Assembly (NCBI GenBank): GCA_030390025.1
Contig: CM059438.1
Coordinates: 80,104,001 to 80,168,000 of the forward strand
Length of the DNA: 64,000 nt
From: Squalus acanthias
Lineage: Eukaryota
Direction: 5' to 3'
Shown: positions 44,361 through 56,001 of the stretch, piece by piece
How the letters are laid out: each line of letters opens with the position of its first letter
Position numbering within the stretch: position 1 is the stretch's first letter
Program-made: the position numbers and the translations under genes
The notes under the pieces: generated by a model
What the model saw: only the letters and a program-made list of their open reading frames with translations
Databases searched by the model: none
Told to the model about the DNA's origin: nothing

Positions 44361-44566
44361 CGTTAAGTTGTAATGAAAATGACGGTGACCACATGGACAG
44401 AGAGCAGCAGTATCCTCCCACTCAGAAGACAAAGCGCATGCGCACCTCTTTCAAACACCACCAGCTGAGGACCATGAAGTCTTATTTTGCCATTAACCAC
44501 AATCCTGATGCCAAGGACCTGAAACAGCTAGCACAGAAGACGGGGCTTACAAAGCGAGTTCTGCAG
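44361..44566 (+). CDS. lhx2: Lhx2 coding exon 4 (homeodomain up to the start of helix 3)
   Basis: Acceptor TTTTGTAG| and donor CAG|GTAAGA. Encodes ALSCNENDGDHMDREQQYPPTQKTKRMRTSFKHHQLRTMKSYFAINHNPDAKDLKQLAQKTGLTKRVLQ; 206 nt, ends phase 0. Confidence 0.97.
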
Positions 44567-44769
44567 GTAAGAGACCTCTATTGAGTTACTGTTCAAATTC
44601 TGTTTCTCAGGCAATCTGTCCTTTTTTATTCTCCCAGTTTCACTGGTTTTTAGAATAATAATTACATTTACAGGTATATTTAAACTAACATGACCTCACA
44701 TATGTAACAGTTTTTTGGAGCAAAAACGGTTAATTTGGTTCAACTTCTCAGCATATCTCTCAAACACAT

Positions 44770-44920
44770 CTCTATGCAGAGGTACATTTCATTGTCCTTT
44801 AGATCCATTTTTATTGCCCACTTCAGTGGCTGTCGCATGTTACCTATTCCACAAGTCTATTACCCTTTCAGTGAAAAAGTTCTGCCCGACTTCCCTTCTT
44901 ACTCCTAACTTCTTAATTTG
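44770..44920 (-). mobile_element. Highly decayed CR1 fragment
   Basis: CTATTCCACAAGTCTATTACCCTTTCAGTGAAAAAGTTCTGCC resembles the antisense CR1 motif near 39945-39990. Confidence 0.4.
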
Positions 44921-45059
44921 TTTTCTCTGGTATTCAAATCCTTTGCTAGAAGGAGCAATTATTACTTTTGCACGTAGGAGAGCTCATAAGCTCCTCAAAA
45001 TTATTCTGCAGCAATTCTGTTTGGTTCCTCCTACCATCCTGAAGACTCTGCGAGTGATT

Positions 45060-45400
45060 GCACTGCATGGTGTGGGACTGAGCCAAACAGACTGGGATTC
45101 GCAATCTGTGCTGTTTTCGCAGGGAGGGCAATAGGAGTGCTGCAAGTGGCACTGGTGGCCCCTGCACTAGGGTGTGGAAAAATCAGCCTGAGTTCCCACT
45201 CCTGATTGCTGTGTAGCAACTGCTGTTGGAGTGCATGTTGGGTGAGGAACAGGTGGATTGCAGCTGTGAGGTCCCCTATGGTCAAATAGCCTTCGAAGAC
45301 TCACTGTTTGGGTTCATCCATTAAGAATGGCAATCGTTGCCTGTGGCATCGAACCTCAACAAAAGTTGCTGCTCTTGGTAGATCGGGGATCTGGGTGGAA
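45060..45400 (+). repeat. Old interspersed repeat (SINE-like), copy 2
   Basis: GGAAAAATCAGCCTGAGTTCCCACTCCTG...GCTGTGAGGTCCCC...AAATAGCCT, colinear with the copy near 8010-8115. Confidence 0.55.
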
Positions 45401-45854
45401 AATTGGAGCAGGAAAAAATTCCATTTAACGTAAAAGCTATAACATTTTAAAAGAGCTGTACTATTCAATAATCTTTTCTTAAGTTTCTCACTTGTCTAAT
45501 GTGTATTTTAATTTGATACACTTTTGGGAGCTGCAATAAGTCCATGATTTCAGTGTGGAGGTGGGAGGTGGATGGTTTTAATGCACTACAGAGTGGGGCT
45601 GCTTTTGTGATACAATAATGACTTTGGCCAAACTGCTGGCAAAACCTCCTGGATTCTGGCCTGTAGCTCCCTCTGTGCTGTATAAAATACATGTAAAAGC
45701 ACAGTGCTGGTGTTTGACGTGAAATCTACCATAAAACTGCAGGTCTGTAAATAGGGAAGGTGGGGGGCGGGGGCGGGGGCGGTGAAAGGGTTGTGGGTGG
45801 TGGAGTGGTCAAACCCTGTTTTTTTTTTAGCCATTTGAGGATTCTAGGGGAAAC

Positions 45855-46150
45855 AAAAAAATCAGCCAACCAAATGGACCAGATAGGAAGGTCCCAGATT
45901 CAGTCCTTGCTTTGCGCTGACTTTGCTACTTACCTGGGACAGGGAGCCACTACGACTGACTTCAGCATCCTGGATTAGGGATTGGAATTACCATCCAGGG
46001 TTCCAACTCCTGCTAGCTATCCAAAGTAAAACCCATTTTTTTGGAAAGCCTGCGTATGGACCATGCCTATTGTCAGCAAACTCTTTCCAGTTGATCCTTT
46101 GAGGCACTCAGACTGCTGTCATTCCTGTCTTGGAACACGCCAACCAATGG
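45855..46150 (+). repeat. Old interspersed repeat (SINE-like), probable copy 3
   Basis: CCAGGGTTCCAACTCCTG motif with an upstream GGAAGGTCCCAGATTCAGTCC head-like segment. Confidence 0.4.
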
Positions 46151-46475
46151 TGTAAGTACAGGACAATTAATCGTGCAGGAAAGAGAAGTCAGAGGAGTGT
46201 GCAGGCAGCTTGTGCCACTTCCACTTGACATGGAGACTGGTGAACATCATAATATAGTCGCTTGCAACAAATAACCAATCTTAAATTATTCTCTTTTAAC
46301 TGTGAAATATTAAAAATTCTGTTAGAAGTGGGAAGTGCACAGAATAGAAACTTAGGAGGTAAACATTGGAACCAAATATTAAAGCTTAATCTACACCCAA
46401 ATTGCATAGGGAGATATAGTTGGACTTTATTTGAGGGGGGGGGGGATTCAAAGTATAAATCAATAAAGTGTGCCC

Positions 46476-46558
46476 AAGTCCTGGTCCAATATATTGAAGT
46501 CCTGGTCCAATATATTGAAGTCCTGGTCCAATATATTGATGTATTGGTGCAATATTCG
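46476..46558 (+). repeat. 21-bp tandem repeat (three perfect units plus one degenerate)
   Basis: (AAGTCCTGGTCCAATATATTG)x3 followed by ATGTATTGGTGCAATATTCG. Confidence 0.95.
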
Positions 46559-49005
46559 ACAGCCGTGGCTGTTTGTATTTAGCACCATGTGAGGCAAGCT
46601 ATGTCCCTTTCTCTATTTTTGCAATCGCTTCTGCTATTATTACACTGACCTGGTTACTGGCTGTTGTTCAGCTAATTGTTCTTTCCCATACTGTGTCTAT
46701 CTGTTTAATCAGTGTAAGCCAGTTTTGGTTGTCAGCAGTCTCTCCCTGGGAGCTAGTTTTAAATTGCTGTAGTTTTAACTATCCTCGGAAAAAAGAGCTG
46801 TGCTAAAAAGACGATCTCTGAGAAGTATGTTTTTTCTTATTAGAAGCTAAACCCAGTGCCTATAATAAAGCAAGCCCTCTTTCTTGATCTCTCTTGATTT
46901 AGTCACACTGTAAAAGACCAGAATGTTTAGACATTCCTGATCAATACCAAATAAAACACCTTTGCATTTACATTCTGAAATATAACATGATATTTAATGA
47001 GCTGAAACGATGGGATCCTGCAGCTTTGAATATCAATGTGTTTTTTCTAGGTATGCTCACTTGGTGATCTGTTTCCCCAAAAATGGGAGAGACATGTCCC
47101 TGTGCAGGAATAATGAGTTTACACAGTGATTCTCCCAGTTTTAGGAGAAACAAGCGCCCCACTGTCTAGGCAGGTATAACCCTGTAGGTGACAATGAGGC
47201 AGTGTTATTTAAAGCACCTCATTGGCACCTGATAAGCTGCTGTCACAACTGTAACAATAATGTCAGAGGTCTTTAAACTCATTATAAGTTTACTACCATC
47301 AAACACTGAAGCACTACTTTAATACCAAGCACATCTTCAAGGATTATTTTAATATGCGAAGCCCGACATATACACATTTTTTTTTTCTTGATTTGAAATG
47401 GGTTGCCTGAAAATCACAGAATTTAATATCCTTTATGTGACTTGCATGCTTAGTGTTGTTTTGTATGTGCGTGTGTGTTGTGAAGTTTAAATAGATCCGT
47501 ATCATTATAATTACACAGAGCACTGATCAATTGCTATGAAATGTAAAATGGTACTTACTTAGGGAGTTGCCTGTTAAAGGGGTTGTTCAGTGGTTCTTGT
47601 GCCAATGCGGCAGGATTTATTGTATCCCTGTTCCCTTTTCTGCTTGCAAAGTGCACTGTAGATGGAGCTGATGGACGTCTATTTCCAAAATGCCTCCAGT
47701 TCACCAATATCAGGAGATGCTGTAACATTTAGATTTAATCATTTTTTAATTTGAGACATATTCTTGAAGCAAAAATATTCTGCATCAGCAATTCTCTGGG
47801 GCCCAACTCTTCAAAATTTAATATCAATTTATTAGGCAGTGTGCCATGTACCAAATTAATTTGGCATAAGCCACAAATATATAATTCTTAGATGCTTTCC
47901 ACGCTTAGAGCAAAGTGATATTTTACAGAGTCGGGCTTCTGGTGACTCTGAAGTGCTGTGGTCATTGCACTTATTCAAAGATTGAAAAGGACAACCGGTT
48001 ACACATTTCACTTATGACAGAGACTTGTGAGGCCGTTGTTATCGTTTGTCACTGGATCGCATCGAACAACGTCTGTGGCAAACAGATAACTTTTAAAATA
48101 TCATATGGGATAATAAGTATATTTTATTATTTAGGTGTTCTGGCGAGGGATAAAAAAATTCTCTTTGTGAAGTCCTGTTTCAATAGGAATGGAAGGAGAT
48201 AACGGTACAGGCTGTCATTCTGGAGTTATTCTTCCTTTGGCTTTGATCTAAGTAACACTGTTTAAACAGAAATTAGCCATCAGATCAGTAGAAACTAAAT
48301 AGAAAATAAAATTAAATCAGATGGAAGCTTCGCGATACACTTATCATTGCTAAGGTTCGAGTGGTAAATAAAGTGGTCAGTAATAACACGGAAGAGTTAG
48401 ATACTGTAAGTTTGTAGAAAGTTGATCCCCATAGCTGTGAGACTGAAATCTTAGAGAAGGCTGAGGCAATGCAGGTCATTTTAATTAAATTTTGTAGCAC
48501 TTTGATTTATTACTTGGGTAACCAGCTTAAAGAGACACCGCTTCCTGAAGTAAATGTGTCACAGTAGTAGCTCGTGTTGCTTATGTTTTTTTTCCTTTTG
48601 GTAAAAAAAATGTTTGAATTTTCTTGGCACGCTTTGCAATCACTGAGTGACCCCTGTAATTGTTCAATTCCTTTAAACAGTTTTCTGTAGAAAAAAAACC
48701 CTCCTCTTCACAGAATCTAGAATTTTGTTGTTCTCCTTTACAAAATCGAATGAATGCATTTTGAGAATGTCCCTTAATTTGTTCTCCTTGTAAAAAAAAA
48801 TACAAGAAACTAATCAGAAGCATAATAAAAAAAAAGGGTGACAGTATTTCAAAATTTGAACATAGCTGATTAGAATCTTCAGAAGGATAGTATCTATATG
48901 ATATGTGACAGGTACAATATATTTTCTGTTGCGATCGTTTTACTTACTTTAAACTCTCTATATGGGTTCAAAACTGGTACAATATTACATCAAATTGGTT
49001 TGCAG

Positions 49006-49296
49006 GTTTGGTTCCAAAATGCAAGAGCAAAATTCAGGAGGAATCTTTTACGGCAGGAAAATGCAGGGGTTGATAAAGCATCTGATGGCACAGCACTTCA
49101 AGCAGCAACACCGTCTGGCCCAGCATCAGAAATTTCCAACGCCTCTCTTAGTCCTTCAAGCACTTCTACTACTTTAACTGACTTGACTAACCCTACTATG
49201 CCAACCGTGACGTCAGTTTTGACGTCTGTGCCTGGTAGCCTCGAGGCCCACGAATCCCGAAGCCCTACACAAACTACTCTCACAAACCTTTTCTGA
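49006..49296 (+). CDS. lhx2: Lhx2 coding exon 5 (recognition helix and C-terminus)
   Basis: Acceptor TTGGTTTGCAG|. Encodes VWFQNARAKFRRNLLRQEN...TPSGPASEISNASLSPSST...QTTLTNLF*, with TGA at 49294-49296. The C-terminal region matches Lhx2. Confidence 0.97.
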   Translation, partial: VWFQNARAKFRRNLLRQENAGVDKASDGTALQAATPSGPASEISNASLSPSSTSTTLTDLTNPTMPTVTSVLTSVPGSLEAHESRSPTQTTLTNLF

Positions 49297-49547
49297 GAAC
49301 TCTTTTACATGATTCCTATGGAGAAGAGGAAATTCTTAGTTTAATTATAACTGTATTTTTATTAGATGCTTTGTACAACTGACTAACAGCACTATGGATC
49401 TGTACTGAAAACTGAGGCAAGTCAATGTTCTGGAAAAAAAAAGTTTACAAGCTGCGGAGAACCTTTGCAGAGTTAACTTCGATGCCCTTTTGTGTAACTG
49501 TACAGTTTTGTGGACTGAACAAGGGAATGAAATCAAAAATCTGAACC

Positions 49548-49557
49548 ATTAAATAAA
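49548..49557 (+). terminator. Proximal polyadenylation signal candidate (overlapping ATTAAA and AATAAA)
   Basis: ATTAAATAAA about 250 nt downstream of the stop codon. Confidence 0.45.
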
Positions 49558-49603
49558 GTTGGCTAGGAATTATGTGTACTTCTAAGTTTTCAAAGACTGT
49601 CAT

Positions 49604-49611
49604 GTGCCTTA
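49604..49611 (+). promoter_or_regulatory. miR-124 8-mer seed site (GTGCCTTA) in the lhx2 3' UTR
   Basis: Exact 8-mer match about 310 nt after the stop codon; mouse Lhx2 is a known miR-124 target. Confidence 0.7.
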
Positions 49612-49747
49612 TACACTGTCTTATAAACACACAACGGACTGCATCTGCATTCAATTCAGATTTATGAGGTTGATTCTTGCCAGTTGTCTTTCTGCTACAT
49701 TGAAAGTTCAGAAACCTTTTAGAATGTCATAGTAAAAGGTCAGTTTC

Positions 49748-49753
49748 AATAAA
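49748..49753 (+). terminator. Distal polyadenylation signal candidate (AATAAA)
   Basis: Canonical hexamer about 450 nt downstream of the stop codon. Confidence 0.55.
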
Positions 49754-52700
49754 GTTGTGCTAAAGTTATATAAAAAAACAAAGAAAAGAACATTCTGGAC
49801 ATTGAAGGATTGCAGTTTGAGACTGAAGGTTAGGAAGAGTCTCCGTGTTTCGTATCACCCTTGAATTCAATTGGGGTAACTGTTATACCTCAGTGACCAC
49901 CGAGAGTTCAGGGGTCTTTAACGGTTGTTTGGAAAGGTAGCATTTGATTTTATTGGGCTCTTTCAAAATCAAACCTCCAGTCATTTCCTTTTGATGTTGA
50001 TCTTCTGTCCCACATACATTTGTTTTGCATTATTTAATACATTCAGCTCTGGGGATTGTTAAATAACTAACTTTAAAACACTACAAGGTGCCCAGTTTAG
50101 ATAACATAGCAGACCACAATGCTATCAGTGACAGTGTATTCTGAAGGTTCTTTCATGAGTCCAGTCTGTCTTTTGCCACAAGTGAAGGAATGTCAGTAAT
50201 GCATCATGTGTGATACAACACTGTTTCTTTTGGGGGTTACTCTATTTTAACTTTTCACACTTTCTGCAATTGGATTGTTAACTGGTGATTTGCGGCAGTG
50301 AATTCTCTCAACGCTGGGCGATGAAATTATCATTCAGACTCGCAACAGATAGTGATAAGAGTTTCTGAACAACTCCATATTCATGCTAAATGCTAGGGAG
50401 ACTGCGATTTGTTTGGTTCTTAGCAACAATGAACTTACTGGATTTAGTCTTTCAGTGGCATTAGTGTACAGTAAATAGATAGCTCACCCAATTTCAAATG
50501 GATGATTCCACTTATCATTAATTATATATAAAACAATTGAAAACAATCTTGTAATCTGTTTAAGAGGAAGGATAGCTACATGCAACTTATTGCATTAGTC
50601 TCAGTGAATCCGAGCCCTCATAAATCACCATGCTCTTTATTATGAAAAAGTATTGTTTGGTTTAGAGAATAAGGACTACAATGTGATAACTTTTATTTTT
50701 GCAGTTTTAAAAATATCATAGGATGTAATAACTGAATGTTACCAGCACCCACAAAGGAGAAATGAGAATTTAACATCTTGGAGTAGTAAATGCACTGTCT
50801 TTTGCCTATGACAGAAGGTATTCTATTTGTGTAAATTTCTGTTTCAGTTCAAAAACCTTACTACCAAACTTTGCTGATTAACTCTTTGCTGTACATCCAC
50901 TTTGGCAAATGATTCCGTCAAAAGGATTTTTTTTAACATGTAAAGCTCACAGAAGACCAATTTTACGTTTTATTGACCACTGCAAATTCCGTCGGTTGGG
51001 CTGGAGGGTACAATCTGGCGCGTGAAGCTGCACAGCGATTACTGTCTGTGCTGCTCCATGGTCAGCCAGCAGGAGGCAAGTTTCAGTGGAGAGAGCTGTC
51101 TGTTTTCCCCAAACTCTGAGACAGACCACCTTACTATTGCTCTGTGCTTTCCTGTTGACCCCCCCCCTCGCTCCAGGCGAGTTTGAGTGACAGGCCTCAA
51201 CTCCCTGTTGCCTAGTTGTGAATCTAGTGCTCAACTTTTTTGAGTTCCCAAGTCGTCTGAATGCCAACAATTTTATAACAAAAAGGTATTAATGAGATGT
51301 GATGCAAAATCAGGTGGTGAAAACGGTCGCTCATTTTGCAAAGTTGTTACATGAGTAACCTACAATATTCTTTCAGTTTGAGTGTTGAGTTGGGTAATAA
51401 TGAGCAAGAACGGCTGCTTGTGTTGGGGGCATCTGCCACACCAGTTATTATCTTGGAGAGGAAAAAGCTGAGTGCTAAGCCACTGGTGCAGTAGGAAGCT
51501 CAACATGTTCTAAATATATTAATTGGCATTGAATGAAAAGAAAAATTAGAGTGCAGTGTGATTTCAGTAAACCAGTGCTTTAAGAATGCAGTGTTAGTGT
51601 TTACTGGGATGGTAATCATTTCTCAGTGATCATTTTGCTGACGTATACAGATGTTTTAACAGCACACAGTTAACAAGAAAGTAGTTGAGACAAAAGACAC
51701 CAGGTTTGCATTGGATGCCCCAAGACATCAGAGGCCATGTTAAAGCTGTGTGTCTAACGTAGGAATAGCTCTGGACCGTGAAACAAGGATTTGGTTTGAA
51801 CAAAACTATCATTAAATACAATGAAGCCATACAATAATTCCTTTTTGGAGTATCTTAAATGCATGTCCAGGAAAATCTTACTGCCAATAGTTAAATAAAT
51901 GTACAACTTCAGCTTTTCATTTTAAATAGAGCTACAGATCACCTTATAGACCAGGGTAGTCTGATAACTGGTGGGATGTGGCTGCCACTGATCATGTGGC
52001 TCTGACGAACTTGGGGGCACACGACTGCTTTGATTTTGAATAATTAAAAATAATATTCGTTAAAATGAAAAGTACCAGAGTTATAAACAGAATATATAGT
52101 GGCAAATAATAGTTTATAAAGAAAATTCTAGTTAACAGTGTGGGTGTCTGAGATACCACATTGTGGAATATATATTTTTATTCTATGAGTGTGATTGGTA
52201 ATTTCACTGCCCAGGGCACTGTTACTTCACATGTGTAAAAATCCAACGTGCCATTTCCCATCCGTGAGATAACGGGCAGAAGCAGAACATTCATTTGAAG
52301 TCCCATTTACCTTTTTACCCACAAACATTGACTGTAGAACGAAGAGGCTGCTTGCCCCAGTGACATGAGTGGCAGGGGTTCACTCACTTGTTTTAAAGGC
52401 TGTCAGGAGTCAATAGCATCAGCAGCACTCGTAAGTTCTGGGTTTTTCACATTGGTGAACCAGCTGTCAGAATTCACCGTGGTGCAGCATGTAAAGTGTA
52501 CACTATAGGAATTCATGGTAAACTCAAGCTAATTTACTAACAATTGGCAGTGCACTGGGTAGCAGTATTTCATGATAAAAAAGGAAATTATGGATTGGTT
52601 AAACATGCACCAACTACAGAACGGATCAGATATTTACATTCTTTTTCCACATTCTTTAAAAAAAAACCCAAGGAAATAAATTTGAAGAAGCTGGATAAAG

Positions 52701-53326
52701 TAAAAATGAAAAATATTTCCTCTTCATGTTGAGGGAGGTGGAGGTATATTCAGAGCAGCAAGTTACACAAGAAACGTGATCAAGAAGAAGTTTATTAAGA
52801 GACTATGGAATTTCATGCATACACTTTCATGAACTTTGCTGACCCTTTTTATTGTTTTGATGCTGTGGTCTTGTCTGATTGTGAAAAGCACGCTGGCTTT
52901 GAATGCTGTACATTTTCTATTATACCAATTGTACTGTCCTGTACACATTCTTGTACAGTTGAATGTGATGTATTAAACAGTCTCCATTTTTGTTGATATG
53001 TATAAATTAGCATAAAGTAGTTCTAATTTTTAAAGTGTTTTCTTGCCAATGAATTTAATCTACAAATTCATGCAATTTATACAAAAAGGAAAGTGATGGG
53101 CATGTTTCCTACGGCAGAAAGGCACCCCCTGGCCACATGGCTAAAAGATTAAAGCTGCAAACCCTACACCGTGTGCGTGATATAATTAACAACCGAAAAA
53201 AGATGATAAATCCCATTCAATTAGAGTCAATGCATTCTTTCTTGAGATATGAAAGCTCTTAGGTTAAAGCAAAAGATTAGAAATTATTTAGGGGTTAACC
53301 AATTTGTAAATATGATTTTTTTGCAG

Positions 53327-53374
53327 GTAGAGCAAGTATTTGGGCCAATTGAGACTGCCATTCCCGAAGTTTGA
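53327..53374 (+). CDS. Candidate alternative terminal exon (Lhx9-alpha-like), VEQVFGPIETAIPEV*
   Basis: Branch-like GTTAAC near 53294, acceptor TTTTTTTGCAG| and phase 0 compatible with the exon 4 donor. The peptide start resembles the Lhx9-alpha tail GEQILG, and a shifted frame reads SRSLKCP (compare SRRLKIP). ATTAAA at 53520-53525. No transcript evidence. Confidence 0.55.
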   Translation, partial: VEQVFGPIETAIPEV

Positions 53375-56001
53375 AATGTCCTATCGTTAAAAGAATGAAA
53401 ATTATAAGACTGGAAACTAGGTGACTTCAAGACAGAGGTCATTTGAAAAGTGAGCTGCTTATATTAGTTTACTATATTGATGTTGAAAAAATGTGAAATG
53501 CTTGTTGGGCATTTTTTCAATTAAAAGAAAAGACTGATACAAAGATACAATACTTGCTCTTGCTGCAAAATAGAAGGTAAACAATGCTCCCAAATGGGAA
53601 ATGTGCTATCAAATAATAACCACAATGAATTCATGAATAATAATAAGATAGACTCTTTCACAGTCTTCTGCAGTTAGATCCAATCAACGGCATAATACAA
53701 TAAGCTACCTGTGACACAGCTCATCTATTGTTCGTTATCAAAGTACTGGAATATGCTTTTTTTCACTGCTTCTGAAAGATACCTGATTTTTAAATCTTTC
53801 CTCATTAAAACAGGTTCAATCGTGGATGCGGTAAATACACTCAGGCAGCTATTTGATTAATACATCAAAATCTTAGTACATGTTTATGATGGAAGAGTTC
53901 CTATTGTCTGAATTCATATGGCTTTAATATCTTTAGGTTCCTAGCTGCTTTGAAGAACTGACTAGAATCTTTGCACAACATTATTTATTACACTATTTTG
54001 AGAAAGCTCCGACGAGTCATGAAAGAAATGCATATAAGCTGGTCCCTTGATACTACAGTACAACACCGGCATAGATATCGATCTGACTTTAGTTAGCAAA
54101 AGCTTTTCTTAGTATGGCTGGAAACGGCGCTGTTAGATAAATTCTTCATTGTCTGTGTCTTGGTAGATATTAGATGAAGGGATAATTAATCTTTGCAGAT
54201 GCGCTGCTTTTTGCAAATTGACGTTTCCTCAATTGCTGTCTCTTCAGCTCTACCTTCACACACTCTCCTTCATCCAGGAGGGCAGTGCGCTCCAGGCTAT
54301 AGGTTTGCTCCGTGGCTTTAGCCAATGGACCTCCATGACTGCTATTAATGGCACTCTGCGATTAACCAACAGGAAATACATTTGCAAATGATATGCAGTG
54401 CTGCTTTCTTTCTCCCGTGAGGTGTAATGATTTATTATTATAAGCTGCTCTACCTATCAGTCTAGTCAAAACTATGTAATTTTAGGTGGTCTAAAGAGCC
54501 CAGTAGGACAGGCACTTGAACCCACAGCCAGCTGATTAATTCTTCGAGAGTTGAAGTAGCATTTTTGAACCAAAATCCAAATAAGAGAAGATAATGCTGG
54601 GCCAGTTAATGCAGGTTCTTAGTGTGCTAAAATCCAGAGCTGTGAAGCAATTGGGCATGGGTTTCCCCTTTGGCAGCCCCTCAACAGAGAGTCCTGCATC
54701 TGGCTGGTACCATCTCTAGAGGCGATCTATGACGGCAAGGTGCTTCCTCATAGGTAGTGATAATCTTAAGGCAAGTCAACTCTTCTGTAGCTCCTGACAG
54801 CTGGTTCCAATAGGGTCTGGCACATTGGGAACAGTTTACCTGCCCAGCTGCCCAGTTGGAGTAGCTGCATGGCACAGAGTAAACTGTGGAACCAGAAACC
54901 AAGAGAAAGTAAATATAGAAGAATACGAGAGATGTTGGTGGGGTGGCGGAAATAGGGCGGGAAAGAAAGACCAGGCAACAATTCAGAAACATTTTGTTTG
55001 TTTCTATAATTCCATTTCTGTAGTATTATTTTTGCAGTGGAAAACAGAGACGATTCTATTGTAGAGATTACACAACAATATAAAAGACGTGTATATTAAA
55101 CTTTCAAAAATCATTTAGTTTTCAAAAGGATCACATTTTTGTGATATTTAACCTTTTTGTGCTTAGATAATTTGAGCAAAATTATTGAAATTCTCTCGAA
55201 GAACTAGAATCTACAAGAAATGGAAAAAACCCAGAAATACCGACATTGTGTTTGCAGCACTTAAAAGTCTCATTTTACCGACAATATGAGACACTGTGGA
55301 CCAACACACACCTTTTAGGTATATTCTGCATAATATTCCAATGCGCTTCTGCTATCAGAGGTGTACACTTTGCTGATGTATACCTGATGGAAGTAGGCTC
55401 TATTTATAGCATCTAGCAAAAGACAGTAAAGCAGCATGAACGAACTGGGTAATTTAGTCTATTTAAACTGTTTAAAAAAAAAATTGAAATGCACATATAA
55501 ATTCCAGTGATACCTCACTTGAATGGTTATATTTTGGTTGTTATTTGACGTCTACTTTCCCCCCTTTCCCCCCGAATAGCCTTGAGCCCCATGTACCTGG
55601 ACTCTGAATAAAACTGTTACAGGTGGGGTTGGGCAGGGCGGGTTGACAGCAATGACTTTCATAACCTTTGTAGATATTGTTTTGTGCTCAGCTGAAAGTG
55701 GGGGAGAGAGGGGAGTAGCTGAATCCAACCTGAACTTGCTGATATTTCCCTTTCTTCCCTTTGCTCAAAAACACAGCTGAGATTAGTAACTTTCTATCTG
55801 GTAAACCCTTAGCACAAATAGAGGCCTTTGAGGACTTTGGACTGTAATGATCCTGCAACAAATCCACAACATAGCAAAATTACAATTGATTAACCCATTG
55901 AAAAAATCTCAAGAATTAAGTGTTTCATACTAATGTCCATTATTCTAATTTGATGTTAAATGTTTTGTAATGGATTACTAACAAAAGAAATACCCAGACA
56001 C

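Follow-up and report, generated by a model that had tools for sequence, protein, structure and literature searches.

Two alternative last exons of shark Lhx2, the weak acceptor of the canonical one, and an intronic element predicted to pair with its start

Results

The gene and its two last exons

The window analysed here, i.e., the whole 64,000-nucleotide stretch of Squalus acanthias DNA, carries on its plus strand the Lhx2 gene of this shark, with a last coding exon that is 98% identical to shark Lhx2 proteins. Three exons are needed for what follows, of which the first is placed by translation, acceptor scoring and splice joints:

44361..44566, plus strand: Lhx2 exon 4, encoding homeodomain helices 1-2, with a phase-0 donor used by both last exons
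49006..49296, plus strand: coding part of the canonical last exon 5, from homeodomain helix 3 to the stop; joined to exon 4 in 3/4 runs
53327..53374, plus strand: alpha-type alternative last exon, 15 codons and a stop, homologous to Lhx9alpha; joined to exon 4 in 1/4 runs

The joints come from assembled contigs, which connect exon 4 to 49006 in three of the four runs and to 53327 in one of the four. The joint to alpha is of the GT..AG type, in frame, and lies in one contig whose short side measures 23 letters. The runs are presumed to be RNA (none is recorded as such), and their contigs leave both the intronic element described below and 52825-53165 uncovered, being uninformative there either way, also as to an antisense exon at the element. 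The alpha exon matches a profile of two Lhx9 alpha regions at E 2.4e-5, and its tail ends 5 of the 42 shark and ray Lhx2 proteins listed, these being RefSeq models from five species, and none of the 43 bony-vertebrate Lhx2 proteins among those listed with the exon 4 end. That the gene is Lhx2 with two alternative last exons, as the sequence-only reading had it, is borne out, the two exons by the joining of both to exon 4 and by the tail in five RefSeq models. A transcript can end in only one of the two, which makes them mutually exclusive by nature, and the choice between exon 5 and alpha in shark Lhx2 is real. The alpha exon is a further case of the Lhx9alpha kind, on Lhx2, in an isoform already predicted by RefSeq; a literature search outside subscription papers found neither a paper on the Lhx2 alpha form nor the name 'Lhx2alpha'.

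The same end of the gene offers two side observations. In P0132, a RefSeq model from another shark, exon 4 is spliced to an acceptor that lies within exon 5, 51 bases from its start (window 49057), a second route by which homeodomain helix 3 is removed. Conserved pieces in window 49297-52733, far beyond the exon 5 stop, are covered by contigs of three runs, which suggests a long exon 5 3' UTR that extends nearly to the alpha acceptor.

Four complementary blocks and their predicted fold

Intron 4 had been read as carrying four short blocks able to pair with the start of exon 5, the last of them with bases that also pair with the alpha acceptor. All four are confirmed in the sequence, on the intron 4 side (hereafter the element), facing the exon 5 start (blocks 1-3) and its acceptor (block 4):

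48700..48705, plus strand: block 1, complementary to 49036-49041, 6 pairs; pair probability 0.58-0.97
48720..48729, plus strand: block 2, complementary to 49026-49035, 10 pairs, one of them G-U; probability 0.83-0.95
48755..48767, plus strand: block 3, complementary to 49012-49023, 12 pairs and one bulge; probability 0.63-0.68
48787..48794, plus strand: block 4, on paper complementary to 48999-49006, 8 pairs, two of them G-U; probability 0.00

Pair probabilities were computed over 8 windows at 2 temperatures, i.e., in 16 settings, and all fold figures are equilibrium predictions of a model beyond which a crossing arrangement of both helices lies. The proposed four-block fold survives in part: blocks 1-3 are predicted (0.58-0.97) and are contained in the MFE fold, but block 4 pairs with the exon 5 acceptor at a probability of 0.00 in 16/16 settings. 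In the MFE fold the block 4 bases belong to a local hairpin (48787-48806), where they pair with 48801-48806, and an alternative register, 48779-48781 with 49003-49005, reaches a probability of 0.12. The same bases, 48787-48794, also fall within the duplex with the alpha acceptor. When set against shuffles, the fold of 48650-49080 did not stand out (z -0.59, with 24/100 shuffles as good), and forbidding the pairs between element and exon 5 costs just 5.0 kcal/mol.

How far the pairing exceeds chance

Taken as a duplex, element and exon 5 reach -35.3 kcal/mol (p 0.004 over 500 shuffles, rank 3/45 among intron windows), and element and alpha -36.7 kcal/mol (p 0.002, rank 5/43 windows). Normalised for composition, the element scores z -3.8 against the exon 5 start and z -6.1 against alpha, where it is the best partner, and among 173 overlapping intron windows it is the sole locus with z < -3 for both exon starts. 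As a chance control we used another piece of the intron:

44995..45100, plus strand: partly repeat-derived intron piece, pairing with the exon 5 start at -46.8 kcal/mol, z -6.5

This piece outpairs the element on the exon 5 start and is the strongest partner predicted in the whole intron; its 3' part has 3 other matches in the genome. It lies near the exon 4 donor and could, its use as a control apart, bring splice sites together. Equally many confident long-range pairs are found in 19/186 shuffles and in 6/174 real windows, and arbitrary targets have an equally good nearby partner in 2/166 (z <= -4.4) to 16/166 (z <= -3) cases, the observed z in this test being scattered between -3.6 and -5.1. 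These rates make the pairing of the element a 1-10% event picked after the fact, and its match to exon 5 exceeds chance modestly. Searches for a known identity returned no Rfam match at E <= 1 in 44500-54500 and, for the element as a repeat, a DNA search of the genome matched only the element itself. With 2 mismatches allowed, its pattern gave 3 matches, vs 4 for the reversed control; in the prokaryote and viral collections it gave one chance bacterial match and none, respectively.

Competition between the two exons

The element has as partners 49012-49041, which is exonic, and 53316-53373, i.e., the alpha acceptor and exon. When it is folded jointly with the alpha region, it pairs with exon 5 at 0.96, 0.88 and 0.63 and with alpha at 0.00; with exon 5 removed from the fold, the alpha core pairs at 0.29. 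Two mutually exclusive folds linked through block 4, as originally proposed, are therefore not what is predicted, since the bases are shared on paper, but block 4 has a probability of 0.00 and so has alpha beside exon 5. Blocking the element in silico raises the unpaired probability of the exon 5 start from 0.15 to 0.37, that of the CAG/G at the acceptor from 0.29 to 0.40, and that of the pyrimidine tract from 0.52 to 0.53. From these shifts, the predicted stem would hide the exon start and not the acceptor. As the partners are exonic or lie over acceptors, pairing would mask rather than activate, unlike in Dscam selectors.

Variation in close relatives

DNA contigs of three close relatives span 48450-49150, a sample of low power (34 variable sites in 556 intron bases), with 0/145 exon bases variable. 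The conservation in related species to which the sequence-only reading had looked does not appear at this power, the element having 5/95 variable bases vs 29/461 in its flanks (p 0.82), and the four blocks 1/37 vs 33/519 (p 0.72). The sole change within the blocks in the three relatives, in block 3 of organism J, turns an A-U into a G-U and keeps the pair, and block 2 is invariant. Across 48700-48766 only 1/67 bases is variable in these three close relatives (p 0.11). The last 135 intron bases have 2/135 variable vs 32/421 elsewhere (p 0.007), and the alpha-pairing core at 48777-48798 has 4/22 vs 30/534 elsewhere (p 0.04 for excess). Within that core, T48782 is C in all three relatives, turning a G-U into a G-C in both duplexes, while changes at 48784, 48785 and 48796 break alpha pairs, the one at 48785 unless compensated. 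No compensation is open to the change at 48784, because the base opposite is the first of a Glu codon found unchanged in all five alpha tails. On the exon side, organism B has a synonymous G>A at 49038 that breaks a block 1 pair unless compensated.

Excess synonymous constraint at the exon 5 start, over its first 12 codons, had been suggested as a further sign of the structure. No excess is seen in shark Lhx2, where these codons hold 1 of the 5 coding differences listed for organisms A and B within 40 of 322 rows, but such constraint exists in Lhx9, which has no such element (see below). Between shark Lhx2 and teleost lhx2b, 6/11 codons at the exon 5 start are identical. A metagenome scan for distant orthologous introns kept 80 loci, two of them vertebrate and both teleost.

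Origin of the element

The alpha profile offers a possible source for part of the element:

48766..48801, minus strand: candidate decayed inverted copy of an alpha acceptor and exon start, the alignment extending to about 48737

The reverse complement of 48766-48801 is the best non-self nhmmer match of the alpha profile (E 0.028-0.031 in 181 kb), a match that is borderline and compositionally biased. Compared with Lhx9 alpha, about 74 bases of the element align (shuffle p 0.0007-0.003; 0/70 real pieces as good), and the element is the best intron match for Lhx9 alpha under 3/3 scoring schemes; its match to Lhx2's own alpha exon is weaker (shuffle p 0.15). These alignments are suggestive of an old inverted copy of the start of an ancestral alpha exon, since decayed. 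Such an origin would explain the complementarity to alpha without selection. Part of block 2 would be explained too, because the Lhx9 alpha frame ends in an A-rich word also found in exon 5: CAAAAT occurs twice in exon 5, and AAAATTC also closes the Lhx9 alpha frame. Read on the minus strand, window 48737-48801 looks like an Lhx9 alpha acceptor followed by its first codons.

A short internal duplication lies near 48729-48743, and window 46476-46555 of intron 4 is a tandem repeat with a 21-base unit in about 3.5 copies. A minus-strand frame of 120 codons free of stops was considered and dropped for want of support.

The weak exon 5 acceptor and the Lhx9 paralogue

A further feature concerns the acceptor of the canonical exon:

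48983..49005, plus strand: weak, G-interrupted exon 5 acceptor, its last 12 bases identical to those of shark and teleost Lhx9

Its pyrimidine tract, already noted as poor, holds 8/15 pyrimidines at -18..-4, the lowest of the 5 acceptors scored in the gene. The last 12 bases are the same in shark Lhx2, shark Lhx9 and teleost lhx9; the tract of teleost lhx2b is normal. Among open reading frames that run through the intron end, 11/11 informative Lhx9-type ones (typed by reading the downstream sequence, with 2 further ones set aside that begin at the acceptor) share their last five residues ahead of VWFQ, an ending found in 0/24 bony-vertebrate Lhx2-type ones. Four of the Lhx2-type frames (P0051, P0075, P0157, P0162) have a Gly two residues before the acceptor, possibly a trace left by the weak tract in a single lineage of fish Lhx2.

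In shark Lhx9 the alpha exon lies 1.85 kb beyond the stop and intron 4 measures 1.2 kb. Lhx9 intron 4 holds no homologue of the element in shark or teleost; the best z for the two exon starts in shark is -2.5/-3.2 at weak energies (44 windows), and no window in teleost falls below z -1.5 (19 windows). What Lhx9 does have is a constrained exon 5 start, where 19/22 synonymous codons are kept between shark and teleost vs 39/92 elsewhere (p 0.00024), over the first 24 codons of the exon (G000:C15, locus L005; L017:900-990). A local hairpin is predicted over the Lhx9 tract (-11.7 kcal/mol, z -1.6), with an invariant stem for which covariation is uninformative; it is similar in both Lhx9 genes, and its counterpart in shark Lhx2 reaches -7.7. 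From these sequences, the weak acceptor and constrained exon 5 start of Lhx9 are a candidate for isoform control. The alpha profile finds no match in exon 5 at E <= 20, so the two exons are not tandem duplicates.

The genome also holds a third, divergent Lhx2/9-like gene (G000:C26:5624400-5632900, loci L012 and L015), about 69% identical in the homeodomain; its exon 5 acceptor is normal, and no alpha exon came to light.

Discussion

What could set the choice of last exon

We lean, with reserve, towards a choice made by splice-site competition at an ancient weak acceptor, the element being an inverted copy whose pairing with exon 5 is incidental. Recognition of exon 5 would be slowed by its G-interrupted tract and by its constrained first codons, which may bind a protein or fold into a local hairpin across the acceptor. 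This would give the polymerase time, in a fraction of transcripts, to arrive at the U-rich acceptor of alpha, 4.3 kb downstream, and exon 4 would be spliced there, with the loss of homeodomain helix 3. The match of the element to alpha would stem from descent by inversion, and that to exon 5 from short A-rich words. The role given here to the weak acceptor would follow from its conservation only. In favour of this interpretation count the same exon pair in Lhx9, where the element has neither homologue nor analogue, the antiquity of the weak acceptor and the constraint on the last 135 intron bases, an element that varies like its flanks, a gain from the stem of 5.0 kcal/mol, and the inverted-copy match at E 0.028. 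Against it count the predicted formation of blocks 1-3 in every window, the duplex p of 0.004, the element being the sole intron locus with z < -3 to both exon starts, the single variable base in 37 block bases, with pairing kept, and in the 67 of 48700-48766, the borderline inverted-copy match, and relatives too close for a strong test.

Blocks 1-3 might, during transcription, form a one-way stem with the 36 bases at the start of exon 5, which would loop out the acceptor and hide exonic enhancers, so that more transcripts reach alpha and the alpha pairing is unneeded. The stem would then be an addition of shark Lhx2, replacing the stronger local acceptor hairpin predicted in Lhx9 (-11.7 vs -7.7), and its geometry is that of Drosophila Nmnat as given in PMC2724269. 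The pair probabilities (0.58-0.97), the opening of the exon start on blocking (0.15 to 0.37), the 1 variable site in 67 and the use by P0132 of an acceptor just past the stem agree with it. We nevertheless hold it to be unlikely, though well worth keeping in mind, as the net gain is 5 kcal/mol, 19/186 shuffles show equal long-range pairs, the repeat-derived piece pairs better, acceptor accessibility hardly moves, and the change at 49038 in organism B costs a block 1 pair unless it is compensated. If the element masked either the exon 5 start or the alpha acceptor, it would be a two-way switch setting the ratio of full-length to helix-3-less Lhx2. Being the sole intron locus with z < -3 for both targets, with duplex energies as similar as -35.3 and -36.7 and with T48782 changed to C, giving G-C in both duplexes, in three relatives, the element has some of what this takes, and a crossing of the two folds could make them mutually exclusive even if no base were shared. 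What makes such a switch improbable is the probability of 0.00 for block 4 and of 0.00 and 0.29 for the alpha pairing with and without exon 5, the 4/22 variable bases in the alpha core (p 0.04) with a change at 48784 that is not compensable, the absence from Lhx9, and a distance to alpha of 4.5 kb vs 0.3 kb to exon 5. It is just as doubtful that an inverted alpha copy has been co-opted as a single antisense switch masking the canonical or the alpha last exon. The opposite effect, an element that promotes exon 5 by capturing the 3' arm of a hairpin over its acceptor, is the least credible of all: blocking the element does raise the pairing of 49003-49004 with 49020-49021 from 0.14 to 0.60, and a hairpin of this kind is also predicted for the two Lhx9 genes, but the CAG/G is no more accessible with the element (0.29) than with it blocked (0.40), and the hairpin has a z of just -0.7 to -1.6.

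Sharks and rays keep on Lhx2 an alpha-type ending that the literature consulted treats as specific to Lhx9. Both the truncated isoform and the weak acceptor are likely to be older than the duplication that gave Lhx2 and Lhx9, and bony-vertebrate Lhx2 would have lost them since. Competition at the weak acceptor, as preferred here, points to the Lhx9 acceptor and exon 5 start as the site encoding isoform choice, which mouse or chick could show. The predicted fold as it stands is a weak prediction of a known kind. Were the two-way switch true, it would add to the few competing structures known in vertebrates one of the masking type, born by inversion and not by tandem duplication, that selects between a complete and a helix-3-less homeodomain.

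Comparison with known systems

The closest relative of the exon pair is Lhx9alpha (Lhx9a/b), the alternative C-terminal exon of vertebrate Lhx9 (PMC9310833). As there, the shark alpha exon is a last exon that follows the canonical one and, when joined to exon 4, removes homeodomain helix 3, its DNA is homologous (E 2.4e-5), and the canonical acceptor has the same weakness; unlike there, the shark Lhx2 tail is frame-shifted and 15 residues long, and the intronic element has no Lhx9 counterpart. PMC9310833 describes such an ending on no LIM-homeodomain gene other than Lhx9, reporting Lhx2 as being without one, and states that Lhx9a does not bind the LIM-HD DNA site, with a dominant-negative role disputed and not established. 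Loss of DNA binding is known for Lhx9a only.

For RNA structure in Lhx2 or Lhx9, the literature search outside subscription papers found no relevant paper, and LHX is absent from the text and from 5 supplements of PMC8052449, a catalogue of complementary regions in human, whose full list may lie elsewhere. The earlier proposal of a Dscam-type switch invites comparison with the docking site/selector systems of Dscam exon 6, srp and the PGRP-LC 3' variable region (PMC6071210, PMC6191721, PMC4691838), where the selectors are conserved intron sequences preceding duplicated exons, and an exon is activated when its selector pairs; in PGRP-LC, such pairing can govern alternative 3' ends. The shark element resembles them in being complementary, on paper, to a site at each alternative exon. 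It differs in that its partners are exonic or over an acceptor and lie at exons unrelated by duplication; only one of the two pairings is predicted to form, and no conservation above the flanks is seen in three close relatives. With the absence of the element from Lhx9 added, the proposal is not supported, and the shark element falls outside the Dscam docking/selector family.

A nearer likeness is intron 4 of Drosophila Nmnat, where, according to PMC2724269, the pairing of an intronic box inside the proximal terminal exon shifts splicing towards the distal acceptor. In both cases an intronic box faces an exon box some 300-350 nt away, with the proximal acceptor looped out, which in the shark is predicted only. 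The Nmnat boxes have, according to that paper, almost 100% conservation among Drosophila species and a pairing proven by compensatory mutants, whereas the shark stem consists of three short helices and is a prediction only. The proximal acceptor is the stronger one in Nmnat and the weaker one in shark Lhx2. By this analogy, the shark element, if it works at all, would work like that of Nmnat.
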